A stretch of 62,912 bases of DNA, from NCBI GenBank assembly GCA_965141735.1, contig CBCSOX010000001.1:1-62912 (forward strand), written 5' to 3'. A program made the position numbers and the translations under genes. Under the pieces are notes generated by a model, which was given only the letters and a program-made list of their open reading frames with translations, searched no databases and had not been told where the DNA came from. This document shows, in pieces, positions 1-53,496 of this stretch (within the stretch, counting starts at the first letter, position 1; each line of letters opens with the position of its first letter). Source of the stretch: an uncultured Oscillospiraceae bacterium (lineage in GTDB: Bacteria > Bacillota > Clostridia > Oscillospirales > Ruminococcaceae).

Positions 1-911
1 GGGTCAGGAGTGATGGTTTTGTCGGTGGTTCCCGGGGTGGCGGGCTTGGACTGTGAGGGGAGCTTGCCCTCCATGGTGCCGGTGACGCCGAAGATATTGA
101 CCCCTTTTTTCACATTGGCGGCGGTGAGGTCGGTGTCCCCGTAAACAGTGACGCTCGAAATGGATTTTCCGGGGTTGGGGCTGATGGTCTGCTGGGTCGC
201 CTTTGGGGTGACATAGCGCGGTTCGCCGGGCAGCGCGGGGGAGAGGGAACCGGTGACGTCAAAGATCTTCACTCCGCTGCGGACGTTGGCCGGAAGCAGG
301 GTGGAGGAACCGGCGACGCTGACGCTGCTGAACACCTCGCCGGGGTTGGGTTCGACCAGCTGCTCGGCGGCGGTCGGGGTGATGACCGCCTGGGTCTCCG
401 GCTTGCCCGCGGCAGCGGAACCGGTCACGCCGAAGATGCTTTTTCCAGTGCGGATGTTGGAGGAGACGAGGTTTGCGTCCCCCTTGACGGTCACGGAGGA
501 CAGGGCGTAGCCCGGGTCGGCGGACACCGTCTTGTCGGCGGTGCCGGGGACAACCGGGGGCTTGGTCTGTGAGGGGAGCTTGCCCTCCATGGTGCCGGTG
601 ACGCCGAAGATGTTGACCCCCTTTTTGACATTCGCTGCGGTCAGGTCGCTGTCGCCTGCAACGGTAAATTCGGAGAACACCTTGCCGGACGGCGGCCGGA
701 CGGTGCCCCCCGCCGCTGTTGGGGTGAAGGAGCCGGGCACCTCCGGCTTGGCGGGCTGCGCGGTCCCGGTGGTGAGCCCGGCAGAGGTCACCGCTTTTTT
801 GCCCAAGAGGATGTCGTCCGCCGTCGCCGTCGCGCTGTTGACCGCCTGGTTGATGGAATCGACGGCCGCGTCGATTTCCGCCCCGGTGTGGGACAGGTTG
901 TAGTTGCTCAT
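1..911 (-). CDS. Phage tail fibre-like repeat protein, 3' end runs off the window (not in ORF track)
   Basis: ATG at 911 after AAAGGAGG. Reads MSNYNLSHTGAEIDAAVDS... with ~57-aa repeats of type GDxxLxAxNVKKGVNIFGVTG, open to position 1. Lies distal to the tail genes. Confidence 0.75.
   Translation of the reverse strand, partial: MSNYNLSHTGAEIDAAVDSINQAVNSATATADDILLGKKAVTSAGLTTGTAQPAKPEVPGSFTPTAAGGTVRPPSGKVFSEFTVAGDSDLTAANVKKGVNIFGVTGTMEGKLPSQTKPPVVPGTADKTVSADPGYALSSVTVKGDANLVSSNIRTGKSIFGVTGSAAAGKPETQAVITPTAAEQLVEPNPGEVFSSVSVAGSSTLLPANVRSGVKIFDVTGSLSPALPGEPRYVTPKATQQTISPNPGKSISSVTVYGDTDLTAANVKKGVNIFGVTGTMEGKLPSQSKPATPGTTDKTITPD
51..648. repeat. Near-identical ~80-bp direct repeat (51-132 and 567-648), 516-bp period, inside the fibre gene
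   Basis: ctgtgaggggagcttgccctccatggtgccggtgacgccgaagat occurs at 51 and 567. Confidence 0.85.
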
Positions 912-924
912 CTGCAAGCCTCCT

Positions 925-1185
925 TTAGCTGTTGAGCGAGATCCACGCCGAAAAAAGCGCGTCGATCTCCTGTTCCCGCCAGCGGCTCTGATACGCCGTT
1001 TGGCTGGGAACCGTGTTGTAAACAAATAGATTGGCGCCTCCTCTGTCCGCGAGGTCGTTGCCGGCAGAGCCGCGCCAGGGGATGTAGGATTCGGTCAGCT
1101 CCGCCAGGCGGACGCTGAGGGTGAAGCTTCCCCCCGCGGTCACCGGGTTGGGGGAGAGCTGCACCGATTGGATTTGTAAAGACAT
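925..1185 (-). CDS. Small phage tail-associated hypothetical protein
   Basis: RBS GAGGTG, co-oriented in the tail operon, N-terminus IQSVQLSPNPVTAGGSFTLSV. Confidence 0.65.
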   Translation of the reverse strand: MSLQIQSVQLSPNPVTAGGSFTLSVRLAELTESYIPWRGSAGNDLADRGGANLFVYNTVPSQTAYQSRWREQEIDALFSAWISLNS

Positions 1186-1211
1186 AGAAACACCTCGTTT
1201 GCCCCGCCGCG

Positions 1212-1484
1212 CTACTGCGCGACGACCAGGCCGATGTTGGTTTTGAGAGTTTCCCCTCCGATGGTATAGGAAAGCTTCAGGGTATAGGACCCGATGTTTT
1301 TCGGCTGCAGCTGAGCGCAGATGATGTGGTTCGGCTCCAGGGTGCAGGTCCCTTCTTTTTCGGTTGTGTTTCCAAACAGCAGCTGGTAGCTGGGGTTGGA
1401 AATCGTGAAATCCTCGTTCAGGCTGCTGGTGATCTGCACCCGCACCTTTTTGTTTTCGCCTAAAATAAAGTTTGTTTTATACAC
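1212..1484 (-). CDS. Small beta-rich phage protein
   Basis: GAGGAGG RBS, GTG start overlapping the upstream stop, Ig-like pattern. Confidence 0.7.
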   Translation of the reverse strand: MYKTNFILGENKKVRVQITSSLNEDFTISNPSYQLLFGNTTEKEGTCTLEPNHIICAQLQPKNIGSYTLKLSYTIGGETLKTNIGLVVAQ

Positions 1485-2166
1485 ATTGGCACCTCCTCAT
1501 GATGGTGGCCTGATAGACAGGCTCGAGTAAATTGCAATGATAGTTTTGGAACGCCTCCGCCTTCCAGCCGGGCAGCCTTTTGGCGCACAGCGCGTCGGTG
1601 CGCACCGGCAGGCCGGAGAGCGCCACGGTGAAGGAGCGCGACTGGACCGCGGAGCGGTTGCCGTCGTTGTCCGACACCGCGAGGGTGGTTGTAAAACTCC
1701 CCGGATCCAACTTGGCGGGCGGGACGTAGGTGAGGTCCCAGCCGCCCGCGACGGGGGAAAGAGTCAGCCCGGGACTGCCCTGGGCGATCGGGGTTCCCCC
1801 AAAGGAAAACGAGAGGGAATTCAGGTCAATGCCCGAATTGTCATCCCGCAGCCGCGCGGTGACCGCCGGGCGGGAAGTCGTGAGCGTTGCGCCGGCCGCA
1901 GGGGCCGTGAACACGGCGGCGGGCTTTGCCGTCTCGCGCACCACCAGGCGAAGGGATTCCCCCAGCCCCGGCGTTGCGTCGTCCGCCGCCGCGGTTTCCC
2001 CCCGGTCGGTGCGGGCTGAGAGTTCAATTGGATAGTAGCCTCCCGCAAGCGGAAAGCTTGAACCTGAGGGTGCGGGACCTGTGTATTGGTACAATCCGGT
2101 CTGGGCATTGGGGGTGAGGGCGTATCGTTTGCCGCAAATGACAACCGTTGCTTGCTGAATGGCCAT
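1477..2166 (-). CDS. Ig-like domain phage tail protein
   Basis: AAGGAGG RBS. Ig-like motifs (P..GA.LTTSRP.V...DDNSGID; VSDNDGN.S...FTV). Confidence 0.7.
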   Translation of the reverse strand: MAIQQATVVICGKRYALTPNAQTGLYQYTGPAPSGSSFPLAGGYYPIELSARTDRGETAAADDATPGLGESLRLVVRETAKPAAVFTAPAAGATLTTSRPAVTARLRDDNSGIDLNSLSFSFGGTPIAQGSPGLTLSPVAGGWDLTYVPPAKLDPGSFTTTLAVSDNDGNRSAVQSRSFTVALSGLPVRTDALCAKRLPGWKAEAFQNYHCNLLEPVYQATIMRRCQCV

Positions 2167-2178
2167 GTAAAAACCTCC

Positions 2179-4308
2179 TTACTGGCCGGAGGACTGCGGT
2201 GCGGCTGCGTCGAGCCGTCCTTTGAATGCAGTCACCTGCGTCGTGAGCGATTCGATTTGTTCCTGCTGCTCCTGAATCGCTTTCCAGAGCACGCTGATCA
2301 GGTCATTGAGGCAGAGCTCCGGTCCCTGGCCCTCCTCGCCATCCGCCGGCATCGGCTGGTTCAGAGTGAGTCCAATCCGGCCTGTGGAAGCGCTCTGGAC
2401 AGCCGGCCCGTCGTCTTCAATCGGGACTTCATCGTATTCGTAGACGGTTCCCTGGGCGATGACCGACAAGGCGGAGCCGCTGTAGGCGCGCTGACTGGAC
2501 TTGAGGATGTGGGAATCCCCGATCCAGTATTCCTTGGCGTGCACCGGGGTAAAATACTGGTTTCTTGTCGAAACCACCCGCACACCCGCGTTGGTTGTCA
2601 GAAGGATTTCCTTGATGCCGCGGATTGCCAGGTTGTCCACATCGGTTTTGTACAGCAGAATCCCTCCTGTTTCAGAGGGAATTTCAAGCTGGTTTGACTC
2701 GAGCTTGCCCGCGCACACCAGCCCGTCGTGGTAGATGCGCACATTGGAAGTGCCGATGGTCGAGCTGGTGCCGCCCGCCCAGAAGGCGATGTTGGCGTGC
2801 TGAGGGGTGGCGCACATGCCGGTGCGCCCGTCCTGCCCGATAAATCCCATGCCCGTCAGATCCCAGCCGGCAAGGTTGCCGCTGGTTGATTCGATATGAC
2901 CGCTCATATAGAGGTTGCCATCCTGCAGCGAGAGCTGCCCGTTGTTGAAGCTGAAGCTGCCGTTGTCCATATCAATCCAGGTCTTTCCGCTTCCGGCTGA
3001 AATCCTGCCCGACCGGATCCGGTCCGCGTTCAGCGTCCCCGAGGTGATCCGGTCGGCGACAATTTCGTCCTCTTTGGTCATCGCCATGGTGTATCTTCCG
3101 TTGTAACCGCTCTTGCTGTGCCCGAGGCCGTCAATGTTCCAACGCCAGATGTTCTGCGCGGTTTTGTAGTCCTTCTGGTCAGCGATGATGATTTCGTTTT
3201 TATCCCCTTCCGTCACAAAGGTGATGTAGCTGTCCTCCAAATCGGTGATCAGCCCGGTTGCGCGTTCAATCGCCTGCTCCAGGCTTGATTTGGTGGCGTC
3301 GATTTCCTCCTGCACCTGAGAGTGAACCGAGTCGATCGACCCCTTGATCGTCTTTTTGACGTTGGAGAGGGTGACGACGTTGCTCATCGGGTCGAGGGGA
3401 TACTCTTTGTATTCAACAACTTGGTGGTCAACCCGGGTTTTGCGGACTCGGTCAATCAGGGTCACCACCGAGAAAATGTTGATTTTCAGCGACTGGTAGT
3501 CGCTGTTGAGACGGGCGAGGTCAATCACCCTGCACTCGTAGCTGCGCACTGGAACGGCGAGCTGCTGCAGCTGTTTTTCTGCCGCTTCCTTGAGTTCCTG
3601 GGCGGATTCGATGCCGGTGTCTTTCCAGACTGCGCTCACGATTTCATCCGAATAGCTGTTGTTGTCGAGATAGGGTTTTCCGCTGTTGACCGATTCGATC
3701 GTCAGCCCGTCTTTGCCGTAAGCATACAGACGGGTGACGAACTGGTTGGTATCCCCCTTAAAGGAGACGGACTCCAGGTTGAGCTCATCGGTGAGGTACA
3801 CCCCCTGTGCGGTCTGTTTGTGCGGCTCGATCACAGTCACCGATTTTTCCTTGTGGTTGAAGGCATAGCTGACGCTGTACAGCTCTTGACAGGAGGCGAG
3901 AACATCGTAATCGGTCATTTCCTCAAACTGAACTTCCTGTCTTTGTGTCACTGTTCCGGTTCCAACCGAATGCCAGCCGGTGCGCGCGCAGATATCGTCG
4001 AGAATATCGCCGAACACAACGGAGAGGCCGTTTTTGGAATAGGTTTTGTGGAACGTCTTTTTAAAGTCGTAAAGGTCGAGTTCACAGTCAATGGAAGCTG
4101 TTTCTGTGCGCTCGTTGATCGCTTTGACGATGAAAACTTGGTCTAAGTAACCGATCTTGCATTCCTCCCCGAGCAGCTGATACAGCTGGTGCTGGGGGGA
4201 GATGTCAAACGAGAGGGTGTCGTTCCCATCGTAGAGGCGGGTGATGCATAAATTTGAGACGCCCTCGAGCGGGTAACTCGGGACGCCGCCGCTGTAAAGA
4301 GTAATCAA
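2179..4308 (-). CDS. Tal / tail spike (Prophage_tail-like) with C-terminal chaperone-like coiled coil
   Basis: VTRLYAYGKDGLTIESVN.GKPYL, IWRWNIDGLGHSKSGYNG and ADRITSGTLNADRI motifs. C-terminal LISVLWKAIQEQQEQIESL. Follows Dit. Confidence 0.85.
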   Translation of the reverse strand: MITLYSGGVPSYPLEGVSNLCITRLYDGNDTLSFDISPQHQLYQLLGEECKIGYLDQVFIVKAINERTETASIDCELDLYDFKKTFHKTYSKNGLSVVFGDILDDICARTGWHSVGTGTVTQRQEVQFEEMTDYDVLASCQELYSVSYAFNHKEKSVTVIEPHKQTAQGVYLTDELNLESVSFKGDTNQFVTRLYAYGKDGLTIESVNSGKPYLDNNSYSDEIVSAVWKDTGIESAQELKEAAEKQLQQLAVPVRSYECRVIDLARLNSDYQSLKINIFSVVTLIDRVRKTRVDHQVVEYKEYPLDPMSNVVTLSNVKKTIKGSIDSVHSQVQEEIDATKSSLEQAIERATGLITDLEDSYITFVTEGDKNEIIIADQKDYKTAQNIWRWNIDGLGHSKSGYNGRYTMAMTKEDEIVADRITSGTLNADRIRSGRISAGSGKTWIDMDNGSFSFNNGQLSLQDGNLYMSGHIESTSGNLAGWDLTGMGFIGQDGRTGMCATPQHANIAFWAGGTSSTIGTSNVRIYHDGLVCAGKLESNQLEIPSETGGILLYKTDVDNLAIRGIKEILLTTNAGVRVVSTRNQYFTPVHAKEYWIGDSHILKSSQRAYSGSALSVIAQGTVYEYDEVPIEDDGPAVQSASTGRIGLTLNQPMPADGEEGQGPELCLNDLISVLWKAIQEQQEQIESLTTQVTAFKGRLDAAAPQSSGQ

Positions 4309-4322
4309 AAAAACACCTCCTT

Positions 4323-5021
4323 TTACAAGTAAGACGGATAGAACGAGACGCTCACCGGAACCGACCCAGACAACAGAAGGGTGTTGACGCCTGGATCAAG
4401 CCGGGGGAAATCGATCAGGTTGGTGTTTTGGAAATGGTTGACCCCGTTGAGCGTTACCGTGCACGCTGTTCCGTCGATCACAAACTTCTGGTTCGCCTTG
4501 AGGTTGTTCACAGTGACCGAATTATCCTCTTTTCCGGAAAAGGTGAGTGTGAGCGAGGCGAGGTTCGCTGTGGGAGTGACCGTGACCACACAGCGGCTGG
4601 GAAGGTTCCCGGTGCAGAAAATTTCATGCCTGGTGCCCGAGGCGAACGACACTGTCTGCAGTTCCTTGTGCTGCACCGCGTCAAAGTTGTAGCTCACCTC
4701 CTGGTAGTTGGGCAGGATTTCCACCACCTCCGAGATGCTGGTCAGGATGCAGGTGTAGGTGAAGCCGTCGGGGAGCCAGAGCTCGCTTTTGGACTGCACC
4801 TCGCACGCGAAGGCGGAGATTTTAGCAATGGTGTCCTCCCGGTCCTCCCCCTCAAAGGTGATGGTCACGGTGAGGGGGCGCAGACCGATATCGGTGTGCA
4901 GCAGCACCGGGGCCAAACAGCCCGGCCCGCGCAGGTAGTCGTTGGTCACCGCCGAGCCCCCGAGGGAGTAACTCAGCAGTTTTCCACCGAATTCGGCTAT
5001 TTTTTTGTTGTTGACTAGCAT
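4323..5021 (-). CDS. Distal tail protein (Dit)
   Basis: Between TMP and Tal, C-terminal DFPRLDPGVN. ATG coupled to the TMP stop (TAATG). Confidence 0.8.
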   Translation of the reverse strand: MLVNNKKIAEFGGKLLSYSLGGSAVTNDYLRGPGCLAPVLLHTDIGLRPLTVTITFEGEDREDTIAKISAFACEVQSKSELWLPDGFTYTCILTSISEVVEILPNYQEVSYNFDAVQHKELQTVSFASGTRHEIFCTGNLPSRCVVTVTPTANLASLTLTFSGKEDNSVTVNNLKANQKFVIDGTACTVTLNGVNHFQNTNLIDFPRLDPGVNTLLLSGSVPVSVSFYPSYL

Positions 5022-6988
5022 TACAAATTCCTCCATGCAAGTTCTTCGGACATGTAGTTCGCCGTCGCTACGGCGAACTCCCGCCCGTCAATGTTGAGGA
5101 CTGTCTTGATCTTTCCGGACGCGGGGATGAGGCCGGTGTCCGCGCCCGCGGCAGAAGCGGAGGCTGCTGTGAGGGAACCGTTGGCGGTCACCCCAATCGC
5201 CGCGCTGAGGCGGCCCGCCTGCAGCTCGGTTTCCTGTTTCATTCGCGCATACAGATTGGAAAGGTTGTTTCCTTTGTCCAGATCAAACTGTTTGAGCACA
5301 TTCTTGCTGATCTGGTCCGCCTGTTTGAGCAGGGTGCCTTCCTCGTCCGAAAGGCCGAGCTCCGCACCCTTCATGAGATATCGAAAAATCGAACGGGTTT
5401 TGCGAGAGGGGGAGTGCTCGTCAAACGCGCGTCGGTAGCGGTAGATGATGCCGGTCGCGGTTTCGTCCGCCTTGGCGAACAGGAGGGGCTGCGCCTTTTT
5501 CATCTCGTCGAGCATTGGACCCATTGCGCTTTGGAATGCGCTGCGGGATTCGGGCGGCATGTCGTCGAGGTTGAGCAGGAATCCGTCTTTAATATCTTTG
5601 GACTCGTCTGAAATCTTACCTCCGTAGAGCTCGGAGTCGGCGAGCATGGCCAGCCAGTTGCCCGCCATTCGGGCGGTTTCTTCATCCATGTTGCCCGCCA
5701 TCTGGTCACCAATCGTTTTCATTTTGTCCGCATGGTTTCGATCAAGTTCTTCTTCTCTTTTATTCACATCTTTTAGATGTTCAAGATCTACTTCCCCAGA
5801 TGCCAATGTACATTCATTGCGTTCATTGGCAAGTTGTTTTTTCTGCTGATTGTACCAGTATTCTTCGGAAATGGCCTCCTCGTTGAGCTCTCCGGCCTGT
5901 TCGAGGTGATTTTTGAGTTCCTCGTTTTGGTCGAGATAGCCCTGCGCGACAATTGAGAGGGTTTCGCCGCACTGGGCATTCGCTTCGTCAATTTTTTTCT
6001 GCTTCTGCTCCCGCATGGCCTCAACTTCCGACTCGTACCACGCCTGGGTGTATTCGTCGCTTTTGCCGATCATCTGCTGCTTGAGCAGCAGTTCCTCGGT
6101 GTACTGCTCCTCCGCCTTGGCGATGATTTGGTCCTTGGTCTGCTGGGCCGAGTTCATCACCTTTTTGGCGTACTCCTCGTATTCCATCGCTGACCCCTCG
6201 TGGACGGTGGCGAGCGTCTCCGCCTCAATCCGCACAGCGTCCGCATAGCTCTGCTCCATTTCAATTTCCTGCTGGTTGAGCTCCTGCATCCGCGCGAACT
6301 TCGCCTCGACAGAGGCGAGCTCCTCTTGGTTGAGGGTGTTGTGGGTATTCTTTGCGTTTTGGATGGTCTGGGTGATGGAGTTTTGGACTGCGTCCATCTC
6401 CTCCCCAAGGGAGGCGTAGGTATCGATCGAGAGGACGATGTTGGCGTTTACCCCCTCGAGCACGTTGCCCGCCGAGGCAATCGAGTTGTAAAAATCAGAC
6501 GCAGCAGAGGCCGTCTGGGCATAGATGTTGCCCATCTCGGTAAACGGCGCCTGCATGTTGGCAGCCATTTCCTCCGCCCTTTTTTGTGAGTCCGCAGTGG
6601 CGAGGGAAAAAGCCCCGACCAGGCCGGTGATCGCGAGCCCCGCGATGCCTGCCGCCCCGCCAACGCTAAACAGCTGACCAATGGTGGCTGCCGCGTTGAA
6701 GGCGTTGCCCAGGTTGAACATGTTCTGGCCAAAGTTGTCCACCCCTTGCATCACCGTCTGCATCGAGCCGTCCATCTCTCCCATGGAGCCCTTGAATGCT
6801 TTCGTGAGGTTTTGGGTGCTCAGTCCGATTTTGTAGAAGGAATTGCCGAGTGTTCCGATCTGGTCGTTTAAACTGGCGACCTGTTCTGTGCCCTCAATAT
6901 TGAGTTTGACATTGACGCTGGCCCCCAACTCGTTTTTAATTGCGGTTTCGATGGCTTCACCTATTTTATTAGAATTTTCTGCCATCAT
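5021..6988 (-). CDS. Tail tape measure protein (~655 aa)
   Basis: ATG at 6988 after TAGGAGGTG. Helical, with a hydrophobic Gly/Ala patch, HSPSR motif and C-terminal LNIDGREFA. Confidence 0.85.
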   Translation of the reverse strand: MMAENSNKIGEAIETAIKNELGASVNVKLNIEGTEQVASLNDQIGTLGNSFYKIGLSTQNLTKAFKGSMGEMDGSMQTVMQGVDNFGQNMFNLGNAFNAAATIGQLFSVGGAAGIAGLAITGLVGAFSLATADSQKRAEEMAANMQAPFTEMGNIYAQTASAASDFYNSIASAGNVLEGVNANIVLSIDTYASLGEEMDAVQNSITQTIQNAKNTHNTLNQEELASVEAKFARMQELNQQEIEMEQSYADAVRIEAETLATVHEGSAMEYEEYAKKVMNSAQQTKDQIIAKAEEQYTEELLLKQQMIGKSDEYTQAWYESEVEAMREQKQKKIDEANAQCGETLSIVAQGYLDQNEELKNHLEQAGELNEEAISEEYWYNQQKKQLANERNECTLASGEVDLEHLKDVNKREEELDRNHADKMKTIGDQMAGNMDEETARMAGNWLAMLADSELYGGKISDESKDIKDGFLLNLDDMPPESRSAFQSAMGPMLDEMKKAQPLLFAKADETATGIIYRYRRAFDEHSPSRKTRSIFRYLMKGAELGLSDEEGTLLKQADQISKNVLKQFDLDKGNNLSNLYARMKQETELQAGRLSAAIGVTANGSLTAASASAAGADTGLIPASGKIKTVLNIDGREFAVATANYMSEELAWRNL

Positions 6989-7007
6989 TTCACCTCCTAA
7001 TGGATAG

Positions 7008-7033
7008 AAAAAAGCACGCCGCAGGCGTGCTTT
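7008..7033 (-). terminator. Intrinsic terminator immediately upstream of the TMP RBS
   Basis: Stem aaagcacgcc-gca-ggcgtgcttt followed by a U-run on the minus strand. Confidence 0.65.
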
Positions 7034-7089
7034 GGGAATGTGTGAAAAACAAATGGACCGGACACAAGTCCGATCCATTTCTGGTATTT

Positions 7090-7823
7090 GTTTCAAATTT
7101 TGCTCCGGCTGGACAGGGGTCACATGGATACTGGGGGAGTTTTTGGTGTAGGATTTATTTGGGTCAGCTGCCTGAAACACAGGGCTGATCTCGGTGCCAT
7201 CCAGCGTCGTATTTTTTTCATAGCCTTCCGTTCTGCTTACAGGATCGGTTTCTCTGAGTTCGGAAAGGATCTCTTCGCATTTTTTTCGGATAGTTTGGGC
7301 AAAAGTGTGCGCCGGGTGGCGCGGTTGATTTGATTCCAGGCATCCTCAGCGCCGGGCGCGGCCTCATCGGTGTACAAACTGTTGCTGACCATGAGAATTT
7401 TATCCCTGCCGCCGTCATTCATAATGGAAAAATTGCCCATAGAATCGGCGTAGTCGTATCTGTAGTCAACGATTTTTTCAACGACTCGTCCTGATCGGAA
7501 GCCTGGTCGAGATAAAGCGTATTGGAAACGGATGATACCTCCTGTGTGTCACTTTCTTCCAAAAAGGAGAAGAAACCACCGTCACTTGAATAACGAAAGT
7601 TTGCGGCAATCCTGAACGGATTGATTTCGCCGCCGAAATTGCCATTGTAGTTTGTGACAGAGAGCTCACCGATACGGTGGGATTCGTCCTCGACGAGCTG
7701 GTTGATGGTCTGCTTGAGTTTTTCGGATCCGTCAGCGGATAATTGCTGAGTATTGGCGCCGCAAGCGGTTAAAATCACTAGGAAAAAAGCAAATGCGAGT
7801 GCGCACACTGAAATTTTTTTCAT
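7090..7823 (-). pseudogene. Chimeric, frameshifted remnant of two lipoprotein paralogs of 8067-8681
   Basis: 7823-~7490 has a lipobox (LTAC) and aligns to the N-half of 8067-8681. From ~7479 another frame (EKIVDYRY...GNFSIMNDGG...) re-aligns to the same segment. A -1 nt shift in the A7 run near 7280 precedes CEEILSEL...AADPNKSYTKNS. Confidence 0.75.
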
Positions 7824-7877
7824 ATTGATCTCCTTCCTTTTCCGTTAATAGCCCATACAAACTGCGCCTTTTCATAG

Positions 7878-7905
7878 AGTATACCATAAAAGGATAACAG
7901 CTCAA
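7878..7905 (-). promoter_or_regulatory. Putative sigma-A promoter of the lipoprotein moron
   Basis: TTGAGC-N16-TATACT with an extended TG, ~55 nt upstream of ATG 7823. Confidence 0.45.
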
Positions 7906-8066
7906 TAAACTTCATTTAGAGAATTACAGGGGGATTGGGCTGTGATGGGAAACGGCCGGGAGACCTAATTTCTAAACTTGGGAGGATATCCGTTCCTGTT
8001 GCTTTTATTCTGCAAAAAGAATGGACCGGATTTGCGTCCGGTCCATTCTCTATTAGAAACGCTGTT

Positions 8067-8681
8067 TTATTTGTCTGTCGGCTGAACGGGCATTACATTC
8101 AGTTTGATGGAATTTTCTGTGTAGGATTTATCCGGATCCGCCGCAGTAAACCGAAGGGTAATTGCGACGCCGTCGATCTCCTCGCTTTTTTTGTAGCCTT
8201 CGGTTCTGCTTGCGCTGTCGGTTTCCCCGAGCTCGGAGAGGACCTCCTCACATTTTTGTTCGGAGAGCTTGGGGAGCGCGGTGCGCAGGATGGAGCGGTT
8301 GGTCTCCTTCCAGGCGTTTTCAGCGTTCGGGGAAGCCTCGTCGGTAGATAGGTCACTGCTCATGGACAGCACCTTGTTTTCCCCGCCGTCCTCCATTATG
8401 GAAAAATGGCATGCGCCATCTGGATTGGAATAGGAATAGTAAACGGTTTTTTCCATGTTGGACAGAGCCTTTTCCCCTTCGTTTACACTGGCTTTGAGTT
8501 CACCTATTTTGTTTGAATCGGTTGGAATCCGCTCGTTGATCCGATCCCTGCACTCGCTGACGCTCAAGTTAAATCCAATCCACCCTGATTTAAATTTTGT
8601 GACCAGCCCTTTTTGGCCGCAGCCGGCAAAGGCGGCGATGAAGAAAATTGCGCACAGTGTGAGAGAAACAACCTTTTTCAT
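8067..8681 (-). CDS. Lipoprotein moron between chaperone and TMP genes
   Basis: GGAGG RBS, signal peptide MKKVVSLTLCAIFFIAAFAGC (lipobox). Hairpin at 8020-8047 downstream is paralogous to 7051-7080. Confidence 0.8.
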   Translation of the reverse strand: MKKVVSLTLCAIFFIAAFAGCGQKGLVTKFKSGWIGFNLSVSECRDRINERIPTDSNKIGELKASVNEGEKALSNMEKTVYYSYSNPDGACHFSIMEDGGENKVLSMSSDLSTDEASPNAENAWKETNRSILRTALPKLSEQKCEEVLSELGETDSASRTEGYKKSEEIDGVAITLRFTAADPDKSYTENSIKLNVMPVQPTDK

Positions 8682-8915
8682 TTTCAAAACCTCCAAAATT
8701 TGAATCTGTCAGAATGTATTGCTTTTGGGGTTGCTCAGAAGGCGCTTAAAAAGTTAAATTTTGCAAACTTTCTATTTGTTTTATACTGCATACCACAAAA
8801 ATACAATTATGAAAATATCTGAACAAGAGGAATTTGAAGACAGTTGTTTCTCAACTGGCTGAAAACGGTTACAGCGGATGATGTGCCTGCCGGTGCGGGC
8901 CAAAACCGGGTGGTA

Positions 8916-9512
8916 TTATTTAAACAAATCGCTGAGGTTTCCGCTTCCGAGCAGCACCTCTTCCAGAGCGCTCGCCTTTTTCTTGAGCAGCTTGGACTGC
9001 GGAATCTGGTAGAGCTTTTTCATGCTCCGGTAGAAGGAGCGCTGCTCGTCGCTCATGTTGCCGGTGATTTTGACCGAACGGTAGCCGATGATCTTGGAAA
9101 TCTGGTTATCCTCCCGCAGCCCCTTGAACAGGGCGCGGAAGCACCACCAGTGGAGATTTACCGTCTGCAGGTCAATCCCGTACTGGTCCATAAATGCGGC
9201 GTAGATGTACTCGTGGTCAAAAGAGAAGGAATAGACCGGGCCCTGCTGCCCCTGCGCGGCAGACTGGCCAGTCTCGTCCGGCTCATCGCCGCCGCGGTAA
9301 AACCACAGCAGCTGTTCGAGCGCTTCGGCGGGGTCGGGCGGGATCTCGGGGTAATACAGGGAAAAAGCGCGGATCAGCTTCTCTTCGTCCCCGAGCGAAT
9401 CGTCCTGCATCATGACCTCAAACTCAACCGAGGTGGCAAAGTCCCAATTGATGGGGTACTCCTCCCCGCAGACTTTTACCGTGTGAGGAGGCTGTTCGTA
9501 CAAAAGGTTCAT
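8916..9512 (-). CDS. Gp15-family phage tail assembly protein
   Basis: YSFSFDHEYIYAAFMDQYGIDL..LHWWCFRALF..ISKIIGYR signature. Confidence 0.9.
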   Translation of the reverse strand: MNLLYEQPPHTVKVCGEEYPINWDFATSVEFEVMMQDDSLGDEEKLIRAFSLYYPEIPPDPAEALEQLLWFYRGGDEPDETGQSAAQGQQGPVYSFSFDHEYIYAAFMDQYGIDLQTVNLHWWCFRALFKGLREDNQISKIIGYRSVKITGNMSDEQRSFYRSMKKLYQIPQSKLLKKKASALEEVLLGSGNLSDLFK

Positions 9513-9841
9513 CAGCTGTCAAACCCTTCGCCGCGGCACTGCTCAATGAGCCTGACCATATTTTTTTGCTGTCGGTTGACCTCCAGCAAAATCTCCTCCG
9601 TTGCCGTGAGGCATTTGGTCAAGTTGGTTTCCTCCCCAAAGAGCTTCAGGGAGGTTCCCATTCCAAACAGGGTGTCGAAAAAGGAAAAAACTGCGCTGCA
9701 CTGGGTGCGGATGCTGTCCGCCAGCCGGGTGTTTTCATCCGGCTGCGGGATGGAACGGAGAATGGAGAGCGCCTGTTCGTAGCGCTGCGCGGTATCTGCG
9801 TCATAGAGATCAAAATAGAGTTCTGTGCCATTGATTTTCAT
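9512..9841 (-). CDS. Tail assembly chaperone
   Basis: MKING.EL..D.YDAD...FFDTLFG.GTS.KLFG, between the tube gene and Gp15. Confidence 0.8.
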   Translation of the reverse strand: MKINGTELYFDLYDADTAQRYEQALSILRSIPQPDENTRLADSIRTQCSAVFSFFDTLFGMGTSLKLFGEETNLTKCLTATEEILLEVNRQQKNMVRLIEQCRGEGFDS

Positions 9842-9886
9842 TGTCCGAGATCCTTTCCTGCGGGCCGCCGGCCCTTTTTTCAACGT

Positions 9887-10372
9887 TTACGCTTTGGGGG
9901 TGAAGACCTTTGTGGTGGTGTTGAAGCTGCCCGCGACAACGTCGCCCATGCCGATGAGGGAGCCGGTGCAGGCCATTTCCGCCTCGTTGTTCGGGAAGTC
10001 GGTGACTGCGACCGAGACGTGGAATTTTCTCGCCTCAAAGCTGTTTTCGCCGGTGGCTGCCTTGTCGAGGTCGACGATGACGTAATCGGTCTCAGCGTCT
10101 TTGCCCACGAGCTGCATCTCGCCGATGTTGCAAATGAAATCGACCGCTTTTTCGTCGCGGATCTGGTCGGTGTTGAAGGTGGTGGACCAGTCGTAGCCGG
10201 TGACGCGCTTAATCGGGGATTTTTCGTTGATGTAGCGTTTGGAGGTGGTCAGTGCGGTCGGGGTTTCGATGAGCTCGACAAAGCCCGCGCCCATGAGGGC
10301 GTATTCCTCGCTGCTCGCTGTGCCTACGTTGAGATAGCTTGCCATTCCGTTTCTGTTTTTGATCTGAGACAT
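9887..10372 (-). CDS. Major tail tube protein
   Basis: 161 aa with YALMGAGF..L.E.P...SKRYINE....VTGY, and C-terminal GSFNTTTKVF. Confidence 0.85.
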   Translation of the reverse strand: MSQIKNRNGMASYLNVGTASSEEYALMGAGFVELIETPTALTTSKRYINEKSPIKRVTGYDWSTTFNTDQIRDEKAVDFICNIGEMQLVGKDAETDYVIVDLDKAATGENSFEARKFHVSVAVTDFPNNEAEMACTGSLIGMGDVVAGSFNTTTKVFTPKA

Positions 10373-10373
10373 A

Positions 10374-10802
10374 CTAATTTCCTCCTTGATAATAGGTTAA
10401 ATTGCATTCAATTCTGTATTGGTAGCTGTTTTCGCCTGTTTCCTCAGAATAGCCGGTGGAAGAACAGTACAGGGCCACAGGGTGCTGACCTTCTTCCAGC
10501 GCGGGCAGGTTGCCGAGGATCGCCTGCTGTTCGAGCCAGGCAGCAAAGTGTTCGTAAAAGCCGCTGTCCTGGATCTCGTCGATCACGTCTGCTGGGTGCG
10601 CCTCGCTCGACTCAAACAGGAATGCACAGCGGCGCAGGCTGCTGCCGTCCGCATAGCGGCGGATCACCGGGTCGGCGGACACCGCGCGGATCCGGTAGCC
10701 GGAAGGGGCCTGCGGGTCGTAGGTTCCGCCGATTGCCTGGACGAATTCTGACAGGTGGGGACAGCTTTTTATCAGCGCCTGTGCGCTTTGGATCACTGTC
10801 AA
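10374..10802 (-). CDS. Tail terminator/completion protein
   Basis: RYADGS..R..F.F.S...SGFYEHFAAWLEQQ...NLP.L...YQYRIECNLTYYQ, directly upstream of the tube gene. Confidence 0.8.
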   Translation of the reverse strand: MTVIQSAQALIKSCPHLSEFVQAIGGTYDPQAPSGYRIRAVSADPVIRRYADGSSLRRCAFLFESSEAHPADVIDEIQDSGFYEHFAAWLEQQAILGNLPALEEGQHPVALYCSSTGYSEETGENSYQYRIECNLTYYQGGN

Positions 10803-11122
10803 TCCAGTTTCCTCCTATCGTCTTGTTCTGATGGGCGGAGGAAGGGGCACAGCGGCCCCGTTCCCCCGGCGTGCGGGAGGGCGGTCACGTCCTGCTCGTG
10901 GGGAGCAGCGGTTTCTCGGTCCATCCCGTCGTAATAGAGTTCCCGGGCGAGTCGGTTTGCTTCGGCCTCCCAACGGGACGCCTCTGATTCGAGGGAGCGG
11001 ATCCGCTCGCAGCACTGGGCGTTTTCCCGCTTGTAGCGTTCCACGTCCGCGCTGTAAACCGCCATAATGCGGTTGATCACCAGCTTGTCAAGCCCCATGA
11101 GCTTGAGGAATTCTCGTTTCAT
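10799..11122 (-). pseudogene. Truncated phage scaffolding protein (GP20-like N-terminus only)
   Basis: MKREFLKLMGLDKLVINRIMAVYSADVE resembles GP20-type scaffold N-termini, then diverges. RBS AGGAG. Confidence 0.55.
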
Positions 11123-11439
11123 CGTCCTTCTCCTGCACATCTATATTGATCGGCCCTTCTGCGGCTGGACCGCGCCGGAACTGAAAGGATGGGCAGCGGC
11201 CGTTCTGCTCATCTATTTCATGATACCAGTATAAACCGGGGAGGGGCTGCACAGTACCAATCTTTGCACAGCGTGAATTGCGATTGGTCATCCTCTGTGC
11301 GCTGCTTTTTGAATGGGTCTTTGCAGCCCGGTTTGCATCCCCCTCTGCCCAGGTGGACAGAGGGGGACCAGCGGTGTTTCGCAGAAGCCGCAGCCGGCAG
11401 GCGGCCTTTGCGCGGCAGCTGTGAAACGGCTGCTCCCCT

Positions 11440-11865
11440 CTACAAATGGAGGTTTGACGCAAGGCGGCAGAGAAACCGCCCCCGCCTGCGGTAAAAATCC
11501 ATCCGGCTGAACTCGGTGAGGTTGAGCAGCTCAAAGGGATAGTCCCGCCCGGAGGAACAGTTGAGCAGGATCGCCTGTGCCAGCCGCCTGCGCACCTCCG
11601 AATCCGCAATGTCGCCGCCGATCTCCCGCACAGCGTCCTCCACCGCCCGGATTCGAGCCGCCTCGGGGGAGGCCTCGAGCTGCATCAGCCGCCCGGCCCG
11701 GTCCTCGGTGGGTGTGCTTGTGCGGTTGCCTTTGGGCTGCCCGTCCGGGCAGCTTCCGCCATAGAGAATTTCGAGGTACTGCTTGCGGTATTCCCGCGTC
11801 CGGCGCTCGTGCCCCCGCACAATGCCGATGCAGACCTGTTTGACATCTGGTTCGAGTGGTTTCAT
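11440..11865 (-). CDS. ArpU/RinA-like phage late transcriptional activator
   Basis: DGQPKGNRTSTPTEDRA..L motif and C-terminal SRMDFYRRR.RFL..LA..L. Confidence 0.7.
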   Translation of the reverse strand: MKPLEPDVKQVCIGIVRGHERRTREYRKQYLEILYGGSCPDGQPKGNRTSTPTEDRAGRLMQLEASPEAARIRAVEDAVREIGGDIADSEVRRRLAQAILLNCSSGRDYPFELLNLTEFSRMDFYRRRGRFLCRLASNLHL

Positions 11866-11900
11866 TGGTATCTTCCTTTCTGTTCTGTGTTGGTTCCCCG

Positions 11901-12422
11901 CTAGTCCTGTATCCAGTCCCTCAGGCTGTGCAGCGCCCTTTTTTTGAGCTGGTTCACCGCCTGGCGGCTGATCCCCAGCATCTGCGCGATTTCAGTTTCC
12001 CGGAAGCCCAGGTAAAACTCCAGCAGAATCACCTGCTGCTGCCTCTGGGGGAGCCGGTCAACCAGCCTGCGCACAAAGAGTTGGTCCGGATTTTGCTGCG
12101 CTGCTTGCAGCTCCTGGTAGGGCGCAGTCCGGGCCCGATGCAGCTGGTTTTCTTTTGAAAGGGCGATATAGCGGTGGTGGATGGATTTTTTGACATAGGA
12201 AAGCACTGCCCAGTCTGGATCTTTTTGCGGGAAATCTGCGGCGGGGAGTTTGAGCAGTACTTCAATCAGGCTCAGCCGCAGCTCTTCAAAGCCATCCTCA
12301 AGGGGCAGCAGTCCTGCATAGTGGCGCAGCAGTGGCTGGAAACGCTCAATGAGCGGGGTTGCATCCTGCGCGCCCTGTTGATAGGAGAGGACCATCTGTG
12401 TGAGTCGGTTCATCGGCTTCAC
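11901..12422 (-). CDS. Alternative sigma factor, UviA/BotR/TcdR-like
   Basis: LIERFQPLLRHYA..L..EDG..EL.L.LIE region 2, YVKKSIHHRYIALSK, and region 4 ETEIAQMLGISRQAVNQLKKRAL. Confidence 0.75.
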   Translation of the reverse strand: MKPMNRLTQMVLSYQQGAQDATPLIERFQPLLRHYAGLLPLEDGFEELRLSLIEVLLKLPAADFPQKDPDWAVLSYVKKSIHHRYIALSKENQLHRARTAPYQELQAAQQNPDQLFVRRLVDRLPQRQQQVILLEFYLGFRETEIAQMLGISRQAVNQLKKRALHSLRDWIQD

Positions 12423-12580
12423 AACCTTTATATTTCATTTTCCAATTACTAAAAAGATTCCAAAAATTCTCTGTCAACGCAGAAAACAACAAAATTTACG
12501 AAAAAAACAAGCAATCATTGTATTGTTTCGTTATAAATGGAATATTCGGTATACTCATTAAAAAAACGATAATTTCAGAC

Positions 12581-12624
12581 AAAAAGAAACATCCCTGCGA
12601 CTTTGCGCAGGGATGTTTCTTTTT
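12581..12624. terminator. Bidirectional intrinsic terminator
   Basis: 19-bp stem aaaaagaaacatccctgcg / cgcagggatgtttcttttt. Confidence 0.8.
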
Positions 12625-12928
12625 AAATTGTGGCAGTTCTGGAGGAATACCGCCGCTGCTGGGAAAAGGCAGCGAAAAGAGCGCAGGCTTTGCGCCGATT
12701 GGATGGATGGCAACACGCAAGCGGGGCCTGATGAAATTCAGCTCTGCCAAACCGTTTACCGAATGGACAGCGGAGTGCGTCCCTGCCTGAGCACTGGACA
12801 GAGATCCCCCGATTGCGGATTTGTCGCAGCATGGTCAGTTCCCGGCGGCATTCTTTTTTCTCAGCTGTCTCTGCAATTCTCCGGCAGCAACAGCCTCAAA
12901 GCGATAGGAATGTCTAATTTTCGATATC

Positions 12929-12957
12929 AGTATATGTATTTTGTTACATATTGTCAA
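12929..12957 (-). promoter_or_regulatory. Sigma-A promoter toward the tail cluster with an overlapping operator-like palindrome
   Basis: TTGACA-N17-TATACT, with ATATGTA-N6-TACATAT at 12932-12951. Confidence 0.65.
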
Positions 12958-13160
12958 CTATTATCCGACCCGGCACATCGGTCCTTCTGCCCCTGACAGA
13001 CAGTGGAAGGGAAATCCCACAGCGCCTGGAAAAAAGGGAATTTTGCGTGTCACAGAGTGAAAAAAAGTCCGGTTTGACTGATCAGTATTCCTAATTTTGA
13101 ATGCCAATTTAATCTAGAATGATGAAAAGTCATGAAGTGACCGTTTTATGACCGGATTGA

Positions 13161-13189
13161 TTGACAAATGATCGGACACTTTGTATAAT
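13161..13189 (+). promoter_or_regulatory. Consensus sigma-A promoter
   Basis: TTGACA-N17-TATAAT upstream of the XRE gene. Confidence 0.8.
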
Positions 13190-13239
13190 TAATACATAAA
13201 TTGTCGAATGGTACAAGAGGGAGGGGAAGCAAGCTTCTT

Positions 13240-13518
13240 ATGGAACTGACGGTCGAAACCAAACAGCAATTCATTCAAACACTGACCAAAAATCTGCCCG
13301 TCCTGCGCGCGAAGCTGGGGATGTCCCAGGCCGAGCTCGCCTCAAAGGTGGGTCTTGCGCGGCAGACCATTGCGAGCATTGAGAATGAAAAGCGCCCCAT
13401 GATGTGGCAGACGTTTTTGTCAATTCTCATGCTGTTTTACTGCAATCCAAAAACAGAGCCGCTGCTCAGTGCACTGGGGATTTACAACCAGCAGCTCGAA
13501 GAGTTTTTTGTGAGTTAA
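13240..13518 (+). CDS. XRE-family HTH regulator
   Basis: LRAKLGMSQAELASKVGLARQTIASIENEKR, RBS GAGGGG. Confidence 0.9.
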   Translation: MELTVETKQQFIQTLTKNLPVLRAKLGMSQAELASKVGLARQTIASIENEKRPMMWQTFLSILMLFYCNPKTEPLLSALGIYNQQLEEFFVS

Positions 13519-13712
13519 AATTGATTTGCCTCAACTGCTGATCGGGATGGGAGTGTGTGCGGGATGATCTGCCAAGCCTTTGCAAAGAATCAAAACAGCC
13601 TGCGGGCTGCCTGTGTGTGGGCAGCCCTTGCGGGCGTCGGCGCAGCTGGAGGCGACAGTGAAACAACTGCCGCTGTTTTTGCGTTTGAGGCAAAAGAAGG
13701 AGACGGTAACCG

Positions 13713-14837
13713 ATGAACAAGAAAATCTATCTGTCCTCCCCCACCATGCACGGGGAGGAGCAGGCGTTTGTTCAAGAGGCGTTTGACCAGAACTGGGTCG
13801 CGCCGCTCGGACCCAACGTCAACGAATTTGAAAAAGAGCTCGCCGCCTATGCGGGCGCAGGGCACGCAGCGGCGCTCAGCGCAGGCACCGCGGCGCTCCA
13901 CCTGGCGATCAAGCTCGCCGGGGTAAAGCCGGGGGACCGGGTGTTCTGCTCTGACCTGACCTTTTCGGCCACCGTCAACCCGGTGTCCTACGAGGGGGCG
14001 CAGCAGGTGTTCATCGACAGCGAATACGACAGCTGGAACATGGATCCCCGCGCGCTTGAGAGGGCGTTTGAACGCGGTCCAAAACCCAGCGCAGTGGTGC
14101 TGGTGCACCTGTACGGCACCCCGGCAAAGCTGGATGAAATCAAGCAGATCTGCGACGCCCACGGCGTGCCCCTCATCGAGGACGCGGCTGAGAGCCTGGG
14201 GGCCACCTACCGCGGCAAGCAGACCGGCACATTCGGGCGGTACGGAATCTTTTCGTTTAACGGCAACAAGATCATCACCACCTCGGGGGGCGGCGCGCTC
14301 GTCTCGGACGACGGGGAGGCGGTGGAGAAGGCGCGGTTTTGGGCGACCCAGTCGCGCGACCCCGCCCGCCACTACCAGCACTCCGAACTCGGCTACAACT
14401 ACCGCATGTCCAACATCGTCGCGGGCGTCGGCCGGGGGCAGCTGCTCCACCTCGAGGAGCACATCGCCCGCAAACGGGCGATTTATCAGCGCTACCAGGA
14501 GGCGTTTGCCGACATCCCGGAGCTTTCGATGAACCCCATCCCCGCGGGATGCGAACCCAACTACTGGCTCTCCTGCGCGCTGCTTTCCCCGGACAGCCGG
14601 GTGCAGCCGCTTGACATCCTGCGCGCGCTCGAGCGGGAAAACATCGAGGCCCGCCCCCTCTGGAAGCCGATGCACCTGCAGCCGGTGTTCGCGGACCGGG
14701 CGTTTGTCCAGGTCAAAGAGGGGGTTTCGGTCGGGGAGGATCTCTTCAACCGCGGCCTCTGCCTGCCGAGCGACATCAAAAACACGCCGGAGGAGATGGA
14801 AAAAATCATCTCGATCATACGGGGGCTGTTTGAATGA
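13713..14837 (+). CDS. DegT/DnrJ-family sugar aminotransferase (PglE/EpsN-like)
   Basis: IEDAAESLG, SFNGNKIITTSGGG and GYNYRMSN motifs. Confidence 0.92.
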   Translation: MNKKIYLSSPTMHGEEQAFVQEAFDQNWVAPLGPNVNEFEKELAAYAGAGHAAALSAGTAALHLAIKLAGVKPGDRVFCSDLTFSATVNPVSYEGAQQVFIDSEYDSWNMDPRALERAFERGPKPSAVVLVHLYGTPAKLDEIKQICDAHGVPLIEDAAESLGATYRGKQTGTFGRYGIFSFNGNKIITTSGGGALVSDDGEAVEKARFWATQSRDPARHYQHSELGYNYRMSNIVAGVGRGQLLHLEEHIARKRAIYQRYQEAFADIPELSMNPIPAGCEPNYWLSCALLSPDSRVQPLDILRALERENIEARPLWKPMHLQPVFADRAFVQVKEGVSVGEDLFNRGLCLPSDIKNTPEEMEKIISIIRGLFE

Positions 14838-50939: not shown

Positions 50940-50974
50940 AAAAAAAGAACCGGATGTGTTCCGGTTCTTTTTTT
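50940..50974. terminator. 35-bp palindrome, twin of 55982-56016
   Basis: A7-GAACCGGA-tgtgt-TCCGGTTC-T7. Confidence 0.8.
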
Positions 50975-51677
50975 AATCTGCTTTTGCTGTGATCCCGAAT
51001 CGCCGAAGAACCTTTTGTTTGAGCTTGTAAAACCCGTCGATCTGCTGCTGGCTGGTCGGGAAAATCTTGTTGTCCCGCAGGTCCTCGTAATAGGCGAGCT
51101 CAATCCCGGGGTAAAACCGCTGCGCCAGAGTATTGGGCAGGTCGGTCAGACAGAAATAGGGGTAGGAGGTGAGAGAGGTGGTCATGTAATAGCGGTTCCC
51201 GTCGTCCCTCCACCCCTCTGGAATCGGCCAAACGTCCATGACAACGAGATATTCGTAGTCGGGATTCATCAAATTGACTCGGGTTCCGCTGTAGACCTCA
51301 AAGTCAAATGCAATGACATCGGTCTGGAAATAGCTGCGGGAAAGGTACTGGATGACCTCCCCTTCAGCAAGATCCCCCTTCACCACCTCCTTGACCAGCA
51401 GATCGGTGAGGGTGGCGTTGTAGCGCTGTTGAATCCGCCCGGTGGGCTGCACCACCGCCACAATCGGCTGCTCTGCAATCATCTGGAACTCGTTTTGTTG
51501 CTCCGAGTCCTCCATTGTCCCGCACATCGACGCCGGCGCGATCACCCCGGTGTGTCCGCTCAAATCCACCCGGCCGTCTGGGTAGCGGACAATGTCCTCA
51601 TGGGTGGAGACGCCGTACAGCCCGAGCCCGGCTGTGACCAGCACCATGCACAGCGCGATGCTGACAAACACCTTCAT
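50973..51677 (-). CDS. Membrane-anchored extracellular protein, paralog of 55105-55770
   Basis: N-terminal TM. Shares V.EV..GD, VN.M....YL and Y....DN......ID.F..LK......F with 55105-55770. Confidence 0.7.
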   Translation of the reverse strand: MKVFVSIALCMVLVTAGLGLYGVSTHEDIVRYPDGRVDLSGHTGVIAPASMCGTMEDSEQQNEFQMIAEQPIVAVVQPTGRIQQRYNATLTDLLVKEVVKGDLAEGEVIQYLSRSYFQTDVIAFDFEVYSGTRVNLMNPDYEYLVVMDVWPIPEGWRDDGNRYYMTTSLTSYPYFCLTDLPNTLAQRFYPGIELAYYEDLRDNKIFPTSQQQIDGFYKLKQKVLRRFGITAKAD

Positions 51678-52496: not shown

Positions 52497-52569
52497 CAGC
52501 TTATTTGAGGAGGGAGAGGGGGATTCCGCTCCCTCCTTTCTATAATCGAGAATACAGGAGGTGCATGCT

Positions 52570-53478: not shown

Positions 53479-53496
53479 GTAAGGAGGGCAATTTGA

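Follow-up and report, generated by a model that had tools for sequence, protein, structure and literature searches.

How a gut bacterium comes to carry a full set of phage tail genes with no head genes beside them is the question raised by the left end of the DNA analysed here. The window, meaning the whole stretch of 62,912 bases, is the start of contig C1 in the genome of an uncultured Oscillospiraceae bacterium (2.84 Mb in 316 contigs, 95% complete). Its positions 12422 to 1 hold 16 closely spaced open reading frames (ORFs) on the minus strand, which run from a sigma factor gene to a repeat-containing tail fibre gene. The original prediction read these genes as a domesticated tail-like bacteriocin, and this reading is supported by the gene content, the missing head genes, the family of the sigma factor, the homology of the tube protein and the conservation of the junction between regulators and tail. 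We give a probability of about 0.65 to the cluster encoding an F-type tailocin that has been domesticated, with a group-5 sigma factor to drive it and a holin and an endolysin to release it.

Tail genes, head genes and lysis genes

Searches of the cluster ORFs against Pfam, PHROGs and NCBIfam yielded the gene order that had been predicted, all of it on the minus strand: sigma factor, a protein of 141 amino acids (aa), a 107-aa ORF, terminator, tube, DUF6673 protein, Gp15, lipoprotein morons, tape measure protein (TMP), Dit, Tal, Ig-like protein and fibre. The tail terminator, or tail completion protein, is encoded at 10374–10802 (phrog_3266, E = 2.3e-32) and the tail tube protein at 9887–10372 (phrog_3099, E = 1.6e-49). 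Two genes occupy the chaperone position, the first for a DUF6673 protein (9512–9841; PF20378, E = 1.6e-27) and the second for a Phage_Gp15 protein (8916–9512; PF06854, E = 5e-55). The lipoprotein genes are followed by the TMP (5021–6988; phrog_1533, E = 5e-9), the distal tail protein Dit (4323–5036; SPP1_Dit PF22768, E = 1e-10; phrog_33, E = 3e-25), the 709-aa tail-associated hub/spike protein Tal (2179–4308; Prophage_tail PF06605, E = 9e-39; TIGR01665) and, at the contig end, a fibre with tandem repeats of approximately 86–88 aa (1–911, the 3′ end lying beyond the contig; phrog_28171, E = 1.6e-13). The full module of a siphovirus-type tail, with terminator, tube, TMP, Dit, hub and fibres, is present, and no sheath family was matched among the 16 ORFs.

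Three Ig proteins had been proposed for the tail tip. The label could be kept for the 229-aa tail-tip protein at 1477–2166 (phrog_11157, E = 4e-22; Big_7 below the cut-off, with 21.6 versus 24.1 bits), and could not be verified for the other two, which are without a family match (90-aa ORF, 1212–1484; 86-aa ORF, 925–1185, with a homologue beside the fibre gene on contig C47; both on the minus strand). Ribosome-binding sites of the AGGAGG type upstream of the terminator, tube, TMP, Dit, Tal, Ig-like and fibre genes agree with the good sites described before. The TMP start at 6988, and with it the length of 655 aa, was confirmed; the part of the longer frame that reaches to 7180 belongs to the end of a lipoprotein paralogue that is broken. 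A tail length of about 100 nm, as estimated earlier, is in agreement with the Listeria monocin, for which a TMP (FtbJ) of 622 aa and a particle of ~103 nm are given (PMC11830787; this and the other publications cited are drawn on in excerpt, and comparisons with them hold for those excerpts).

Genes for terminase, portal, capsid, connectors, replication and integrase were absent from the cluster ORFs in the Pfam and PHROGs searches. Phage head families were likewise not found by Pfam in 44 greedy ORFs to the right of the cluster (12.6–62.9 kb), nor by PHROGs in 30 ORFs taken from the rest of C1 and from contig C89, which is placed to the left of the window below. The predicted lack of head, packaging, replication and integrase genes between the regulators and the tail was upheld, the sole gene there being the 107-aa ORF (10799–11122, minus strand), which has its own ribosome-binding site and a stop codon that overlaps the start of the terminator gene. 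Its previous label of scaffold stub could not be confirmed, since the match to PF06810 reached only E = 0.2 (12 bits at a cut-off of 35; residues 7–39 on profile positions 1–35) and that to the scaffold protein of a relative was weak (BLASTP, E = 0.38); at these sub-threshold values, the ORF is a possible remnant of a scaffold gene. Its exact sequence was found on 11 public contigs, together with one variant of 107 aa. Between the 141-aa gene and the structural genes lies a hairpin with a 9-bp stem (11335–11362), the loop of which is inverted in one metagenome contig.

In the complete relatives L014 and G358, terminase, portal, scaffold, capsid, adaptor and two more connector genes (phrog_3366 and phrog_556) stand upstream of the terminator gene. 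Here, as in the headless loci G227 and L016 described below, the regulator directly or nearly adjoins the terminator gene, and the gene cut coincides with the boundary between head and tail assembly.

The tube protein links the cluster to a particle that has been seen. It matched PDB entry 11OK with E = 8e-51 over residues 4–158 of 161, which is the tube of the F-type tailocin of Clostridium histolyticum NCTC 503 (locus 02168–02181); particles of this tailocin were observed by negative stain and cryo-electron microscopy, and six proteins of its locus were identified by mass spectrometry (bioRxiv 10.64898/2026.06.17.733002). That locus is like the present one in comprising terminator, tube, TMP, distal tail protein, hub, fibres and lysis genes and no capsid gene, and differs in having a duplicated tube gene; the cluster here has lipoprotein morons. 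Whereas the C. histolyticum tailocin was seen as particles, the likeness of the present cluster to it is one of tube sequence and gene content. A sigma regulator is not mentioned in the excerpts of the preprint.

A holin and an endolysin were found where they were expected, to the left of the window. The end of contig C89 carries an endolysin gene with GH25 and SH3 domains (8949–9962) and a PF05105 holin gene that runs off the contig, so that 57 C-terminal residues of the holin are present; no head genes were found on C89, where the lysis genes are followed by a plasmid-type backbone. The contig was placed by synteny with the sister species G001, whose contig C13 (53,966 bp) is collinear with C1:13000–62234 and then with C89:561–8914. 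The first bases of G001:C13 continue C89:8911–9170, the 3′ end of the endolysin gene, and the flank with the XRE gene follows 48 bp further; the cluster therefore spans C89:~8949 to C1:~12950, which is ~14.5 kb plus an unassembled gap, and the direct joining of endolysin end and XRE flank in G001:C13 sets its outer limits at C89:~9170 and C1:~13000. We infer that C89 continues the window leftwards and joins the cluster to the holin and endolysin. In G001, a homologous endolysin gene is adjacent to a complete 134-aa holin gene (TIGR01593, 'toxin secretion/phage lysis holin', E = 2.4e-22) and a fibre-like gene.

The sigma factor and the upstream region

The first gene of the cluster (11901–12422, minus strand) encodes a sigma factor of 173 aa (Sigma70_r4, E = 2.4e-12) that NCBIfam places at superfamily level only (TIGR02937, sigma-70/ECF, 45.1 bits at a cut-off of 42.9). 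A tblastn search against 72,556 plasmids gave matches in 76 records, 61 of them from Clostridium and 53 at a cover of at least 80%, including sigma genes on plasmids of C. tetani and Paraclostridium sordellii. Identity to UviA of pIP404, where the next gene is 'bacteriocin UviB', was 25.9% over 96% of the length (E = 2e-6), and identity to a UviA-like sigma factor of C. argentinense, which is followed by a UviB-family holin and a bacteriocin, was 33.8% (E = 4e-21). In work on a UviA-like sigma factor, an SRQ motif in region 4.2 was proposed as the marker of the TcdR group and TTTACA was named as its −35 element (PMC4031146); the present protein reads ISRQAVNQ at this site, where UviA has TSRQ and the C. 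argentinense homologue has ISRQ in the alignment. Full-length homology and the SRQ motif support its assignment to the TcdR/UviA/BotR/TetR group, in line with the clostridial toxin/bacteriocin-type sigma factor named in the original prediction. Three fecal phage contigs carry a homologous sigma factor and have nothing else in common with the cluster. The late regulators of related phages (phrog_36, phrog_248) showed no similarity detectable by BLASTP to the sigma factor or to the 141-aa protein.

The 141-aa protein (11440–11865, minus strand), which stands in the position of a late regulator, had been labelled ArpU-like. This label could not be confirmed, as the protein itself was without a match in Pfam, PHROGs and NCBIfam, and BLASTP against the regulators of relatives returned only E-values of 0.85–9.6. 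A family search places it in an uncharacterised phage-associated family of 176 representatives; among 71 members scanned, 26 matched phrog_11237 (unknown function), one phrog_248 and one phrog_36. No Pfam family was matched. The structure model was confident and all-helical, with a predicted local distance difference test (pLDDT) score of 94.3. Foldseek found nothing in the PDB at E ≤ 0.001, VIA gave only generic helical matches (Z ≤ 5.9), a profile search of PDB sequences gave nothing below E = 0.15, and the protein-cluster atlas held only unnamed clusters. Exact copies of the protein are present on 18 public contigs. Paralogues with 55–57% identity lie outside any phage context on contig C42 (6707–7183) and on G001:C11 (~1349.6 kb).

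Upstream of the sigma gene, a strong, terminator-like hairpin, formed by a GC-rich palindrome and followed by a T run (12581–12624), is situated between that gene and a sigma-70-like promoter facing the cluster (12929–12957, minus strand; TTGACA-17-TATACT, by consensus match). Divergent from this promoter is that of an XRE-type helix-turn-helix gene (promoter 13161–13189, plus strand, likewise by consensus match; gene 13201–13518, plus strand). The XRE gene encodes a possible repressor and is kept in the sister species without the cluster. Rfam models matched nothing in positions 1–14000 at E ≤ 0.1.

Conservation of the headless junction and competing readings

A metagenome survey revealed 20 runs from eight studies that share part of the stretch, each with at most 26% of the sampled words; the runs are labelled mouse gut, gut or feces metagenome, or are without a label, and no RNA run was listed among them. 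Four of them (X1, X4, X9 and X13), from four studies, were compared at contig level. In all four, the headless junction lies on single contigs, on which tube or Gp15 is linked to the sigma gene by way of terminator, 107-aa ORF and 141-aa gene with nothing inserted (X1, 9900–12553; X4, 9900–11589 and 11568–12481; X9, 8810–12529; X13, 8810–12529 with a 50-bp inversion at the hairpin), and those of X9 and X13 run on into the XRE flank. The sigma-to-tube segment is ~99% identical to the window in X1 and X4, and the more distant contigs differ at 305 of 3720 positions (X9) and at 169 of 2514 plus 128 of 1157 positions (X13), corresponding to ~92% identity. The X9 and X13 indels, 33 in all, were intergenic or 3 bp long in 12 of the 12 among those listed. 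In relatives, the Tal/Ig region (1617–4663) and a mid-TMP segment (5581–5912) are replaced by diverged sequence of similar length, and the fibre shows joints in metagenome contigs that go back by 258 or 266. Replacement of Tal and the Ig-like gene, with the core kept, is as expected of specificity determinants.

At the protein level, all three full-length close relatives of the TMP are exactly 655 aa long, at 88, 86 and 85% identity. Outside the diverged segment, the relative P0003 is identical at 495 of 544 residues (91%) with a nucleotide divergence of ~7.4–8%, where its pairing with X13 is by equal record size (6999 bp) only; neutral simulation at 8% divergence gave a protein identity of 83.7 ± 1.4%, and the frame stayed open in 1% of the trials. 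The 90% cluster of the tube comprises 13 variants on 86 contigs, 11 of the 12 others differing by 1–4 residues and the next cluster having 66% identity, a near-invariance that is measured at the protein level only. Gp15 has 198 aa in 14 of 14 variants. Relaxed selection, which the original prediction had named as speaking against a bacteriocin, was not seen, and the headless state is kept under selection across strains.

The alternative that survives best is a cryptic, decaying prophage remnant without present function. In this view, its head and packaging genes were lost in two deletions, and the tail is intact for lack of time. It would account for the possible scaffold remnant and for the lipoprotein gene broken over three frames, and it finds company in other degraded phage pieces of the genome (a portal fragment and an adaptor without a capsid gene between them on C47, and C100), in the deletion of the cluster from G001, in a headless locus of Clostridium zeae (L015) that also lacks the terminator gene, and in the mosaic of modules among strains. 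It sits poorly with the same junction in contigs of four studies, including relatives diverged by ~8%, with the TMP kept at 655 aa at an identity above the neutral value in a frame that rarely stays open by chance, with the nearly invariant tube and with regulators and lysis genes kept at both ends. On this evidence we regard a remnant as unlikely.

Less probable again is a tail-donor module, the tails of which would complete the heads of a capsid-forming satellite or of a tail-defective prophage and serve gene transfer instead of killing. Capsid-forming islands that borrow helper tails are known, the tail here is full and includes the terminator as its head-docking end, and the genome holds prophage pieces with portal and minor head genes (C100, C47). 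However, the head-docking genes present in L014 and G358 (adaptor, phrog_3366, phrog_556) are missing here, no head-only element was identified, and the tube of C47 and C100 is of a different family (phrog_820). A chimeric contig in the metagenome-assembled genome, wrongly joining regulators to tail genes, was rejected as highly improbable in spite of the fragmented assembly (316 contigs) and a window start at a repeat-induced break, because independent contigs from four runs cross the headless junction without insertion and exact copies of the 141-aa and 107-aa sequences lie on 18 and 11 public contigs.

Several observations weigh against a domesticated tailocin. Particle assembly, release and killing are predictions from the gene content, and the broken lipoprotein gene and the possible scaffold remnant show some decay. 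The TTTACA element is absent from the intergenic regions before the sigma gene, the 107-aa ORF and the TMP gene within 1–13200, the seven sites on the minus strand of that range all lying within genes. A search for LexA boxes gave 27 two-mismatch matches versus 33.7 expected and none in 12423–13200. X1 and X4 are uncovered at ≥85% likeness over 2271–4540 and 5449–9534 (an X4 piece at 8173–9080 excepted), a gap taken to reflect only sequences below this likeness or contigs that are missing, and not absence; as they lack a match on DUF6673 to TMP and on most of Tal, the locus is therefore a mosaic that exchanges modules as prophages do. The constraint on the TMP is moderate, and the limits given above for the P0003 pairing and the tube variants count on this side as well. 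The join of C89 to C1 is by synteny, with the gap unassembled. The left end of C1 is a repeat-induced break within the fibre tandem repeats, and the assembly graph is ambiguous there because the first 55 bases of C47 are identical to those of C1. Finally, the cluster is dispensable, because G001 lost it by deletion, with a 260-bp endolysin scar remaining, and G002 lacks it, with one 104-bp match to the first 13.6 kb of the window. Patchy presence, foreseen as an argument against the prediction, is thus partly true.

A domesticated F-type tailocin is still the reading we favour, and it would work as follows. A signal would raise the TcdR/UviA-group sigma factor, and in this the XRE gene that diverges from the cluster may take part, together with the terminator-like hairpin of the sigma leader. 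The sigma factor, possibly together with the 141-aa helical protein, would steer RNA polymerase to the tail operon and so control it. Terminator, tube, the two chaperone-position proteins, the 655-aa TMP, Dit, Tal and fibres would form a flexible tube of ~100 nm that is capped and has no head to dock to. Lysis of the producer by the holin and GH25/SH3 endolysin encoded at the other end would set the particles free. The fibre/Tal set may then bind a surface structure of related strains, with TMP and tip breaching the envelope.

Relatives, carrier element and wider meaning

On sequence comparison, the cluster is nearest to the C. histolyticum tailocin and to clostridial siphophages and matches the monocin, gene for gene, in architecture only. 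The siphophages C. perfringens vB_CpeS_BG3P and C. difficile phiCD38-2, phiCD146 and phiCD111 have the same tube family at 40–52% identity. These phages and the complete prophages L014 and G358 share the order terminator, tube, DUF6673, Gp15, TMP, Dit, Tal, holin and lysin, but also have terminase, portal, scaffold, capsid, connectors and a phrog_36 late regulator, all of which are absent from the cluster here; the regulators of these phages and prophages are unrelated by BLASTP to those of the cluster. The Listeria monocin (ftb) resembles the cluster in its regulatory genes, FtbF terminator, FtbG tube, unresolved FtbH/FtbI in the chaperone position, FtbJ TMP, FtbK Dit, FtbL hub, fibres, holin and lysin (PMC11830787). 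It differs in the regulators themselves, and the present cluster lies on plasmid-like DNA; monocin chains were not among the PDB matches of tube, terminator, Dit and Tal in phmmer (E ≤ 1 or 0.01).

In a class-wide search, the tube was found in two of 398 other genomes scored (two more were unscored), and tube scans gave two loci in genome contigs and one in viral contigs. A Tal scan of metagenome contigs brought up no close relatives; the 21 loci that it gave are distant and match the coiled part at the C terminus of Tal. Three other headless loci belong to the tube family, all of low-GC, Clostridium type. G227 (L053/L054) has XRE and ImmA-type protease genes, replication genes, an activator directly before the terminator, the tail genes, and holin and amidase genes at the end; the IMG/VR contig L016 passes from a regulator and the terminator gene onward to holin and endolysin; L015 is the C. 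zeae locus already mentioned. These three are candidate F-type tailocins themselves. In a small tree of tube, DUF6673 and Gp15, they form a group (support 0.93), with the window placed on a long branch beside the complete phage L014 (support 0.84), a placement apart from the other headless loci that suggests that head loss in the lineage of the window was probably independent.

Further tail clusters were observed in the same genome and its sister species. Contig C47 (L001, 1–12000) holds a second cluster with a fibre, an Ig-like protein and an 86-aa protein that are 70, 40 and 37% identical to those of the window, a 725-aa TMP, Gp15, a phrog_820 tube, a portal fragment of 370 aa and a head-tail adaptor, the latter two not separated by a capsid gene; it looks like another partly beheaded prophage. 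Contig C100 (L002) carries portal, minor head protein, phrog_820 tube, DUF6673 and the start of a TMP, its terminator and Gp15 being 37 and 48% identical to those of the window. In G001, the locus L038 (C11, 430–436 kb) has endolysin, holin and a fibre-like gene next to Minor_capsid_1 and short, broken-looking frames, and it gives the impression of a related phage of the same type that has decayed.

Between Gp15 and the TMP gene (7106–8696), the window contains two lipoprotein paralogues, one of them broken. The intact gene encodes a 204-aa lipoprotein moron with an FAGC lipobox (8067–8681, minus strand), for which the protein-cluster atlas gave only unnamed clusters and a part in self-immunity is a speculative idea; the other is broken over three reading frames (7106–7823, minus strand). 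In relatives, a joint from 7483 to 8604 merges both paralogues, and complete relatives have other small genes at this site, because of which it looks like an insertion spot for morons.

The carrier element looks like a circular plasmid, as suggested by the end-to-start collinearity of G001:C13, with a size of ~54 kb there and ~73 kb here. A Toprim-DnaB primase-helicase encoded at C89:6721–8628 resembles the replication proteins of small Streptococcus thermophilus plasmids (45–48%) and that of a 52-kb Anaerotruncus colihominis plasmid (41%). Several public contigs with cluster proteins are 68–72 kb long; an integrated form is possible, because one such contig measures 1.14 Mb (1,135,613 bp). 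To the right of the cluster lies a 21-kb surface-polysaccharide biosynthesis locus (13713–34884), and C89:2217–5531 encodes a 1104-aa polymorphic toxin with Peptidase_C39_2 and Ntox44 domains; the position of the cluster beside this locus and the toxin on plasmid-like DNA suggests a mobile competition package.

The regulatory and lysis genes recall two clostridial systems. As is proposed for the cluster here, UviA-UviB-BCN5 of pIP404 and TcdR-TcdE(-CwlH) of the C. difficile pathogenicity locus (PaLoc) have a group-5 SRQ sigma factor at one end and, at the other, an endolysin together with a holin from the 'toxin secretion/phage lysis' family (PMC4031146, PMC4597214). Whereas their cargo is a soluble toxin or bacteriocin, the cargo here is a 10-kb phage tail operon; moreover, the conserved TTTACA element was not found here, and the holin belongs to PF05105 and is no UviB. 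The pIP404 genes are plasmid-borne, and the element here is plasmid-like. A phage origin has been proposed (PMC4597214) for the mono-toxin PaLoc, which consists of tcdR, tcdB, tcdE and cwlH. Here the same frame of sigma factor, holin and endolysin would enclose a whole tail, and the cluster offers a testable case for a phage origin of the TcdR-holin-endolysin module. That it represents the ancestral state, with a group-5 sigma factor as late activator of a tail bacteriocin and the toxin loci arising by cargo swap, is a tentative idea and on present evidence a doubtful one. If it were true, phage structural operons would be direct targets of transcription by group-5 sigma factors. A plasmid-like element would then spread a tailocin and, with it, a surface-polysaccharide locus, which may determine sensitivity.

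Gram-positive F-type tailocins are known from Listeria (PMC11830787) and C. histolyticum (bioRxiv 10.64898/2026.06.17.733002). What is new here is, first, a TcdR/UviA-group sigma factor where a late regulator is usual; second, a carrier that is plasmid-like; and third, a 54% GC host from outside the family of the Clostridium carriers found here. The GC content of the tail cluster is 56.1%, compared with 53.9% for the genome and ~29% for the Clostridium relatives. If the tailocin reading is true, F-type tailocins would extend to a gut commensal lineage of ~54% GC, and the cluster would be a candidate narrow-spectrum killing particle in the gut and, in the literature searched, the first link of F-type tailocins to the sigma family that drives clostridial toxins and the bacteriocin BCN5. 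In that literature, UviA together with 'phage tail' gave no match, and tailocin together with TcdR occurred in a single paper, which judging by title and opening abstract lines deals with C. difficile toxins.

Two features of the remaining window deserve mention. The stretch 52000–56000 is of low GC content (41–45% versus 54% for the genome), encodes an ABC ATPase and several ORFs without a family, and is missing from the alignment with G001:C13, which skips from 50973 to 55983. At 61509–62876, two adjacent genes encode GYF_2-domain proteins.

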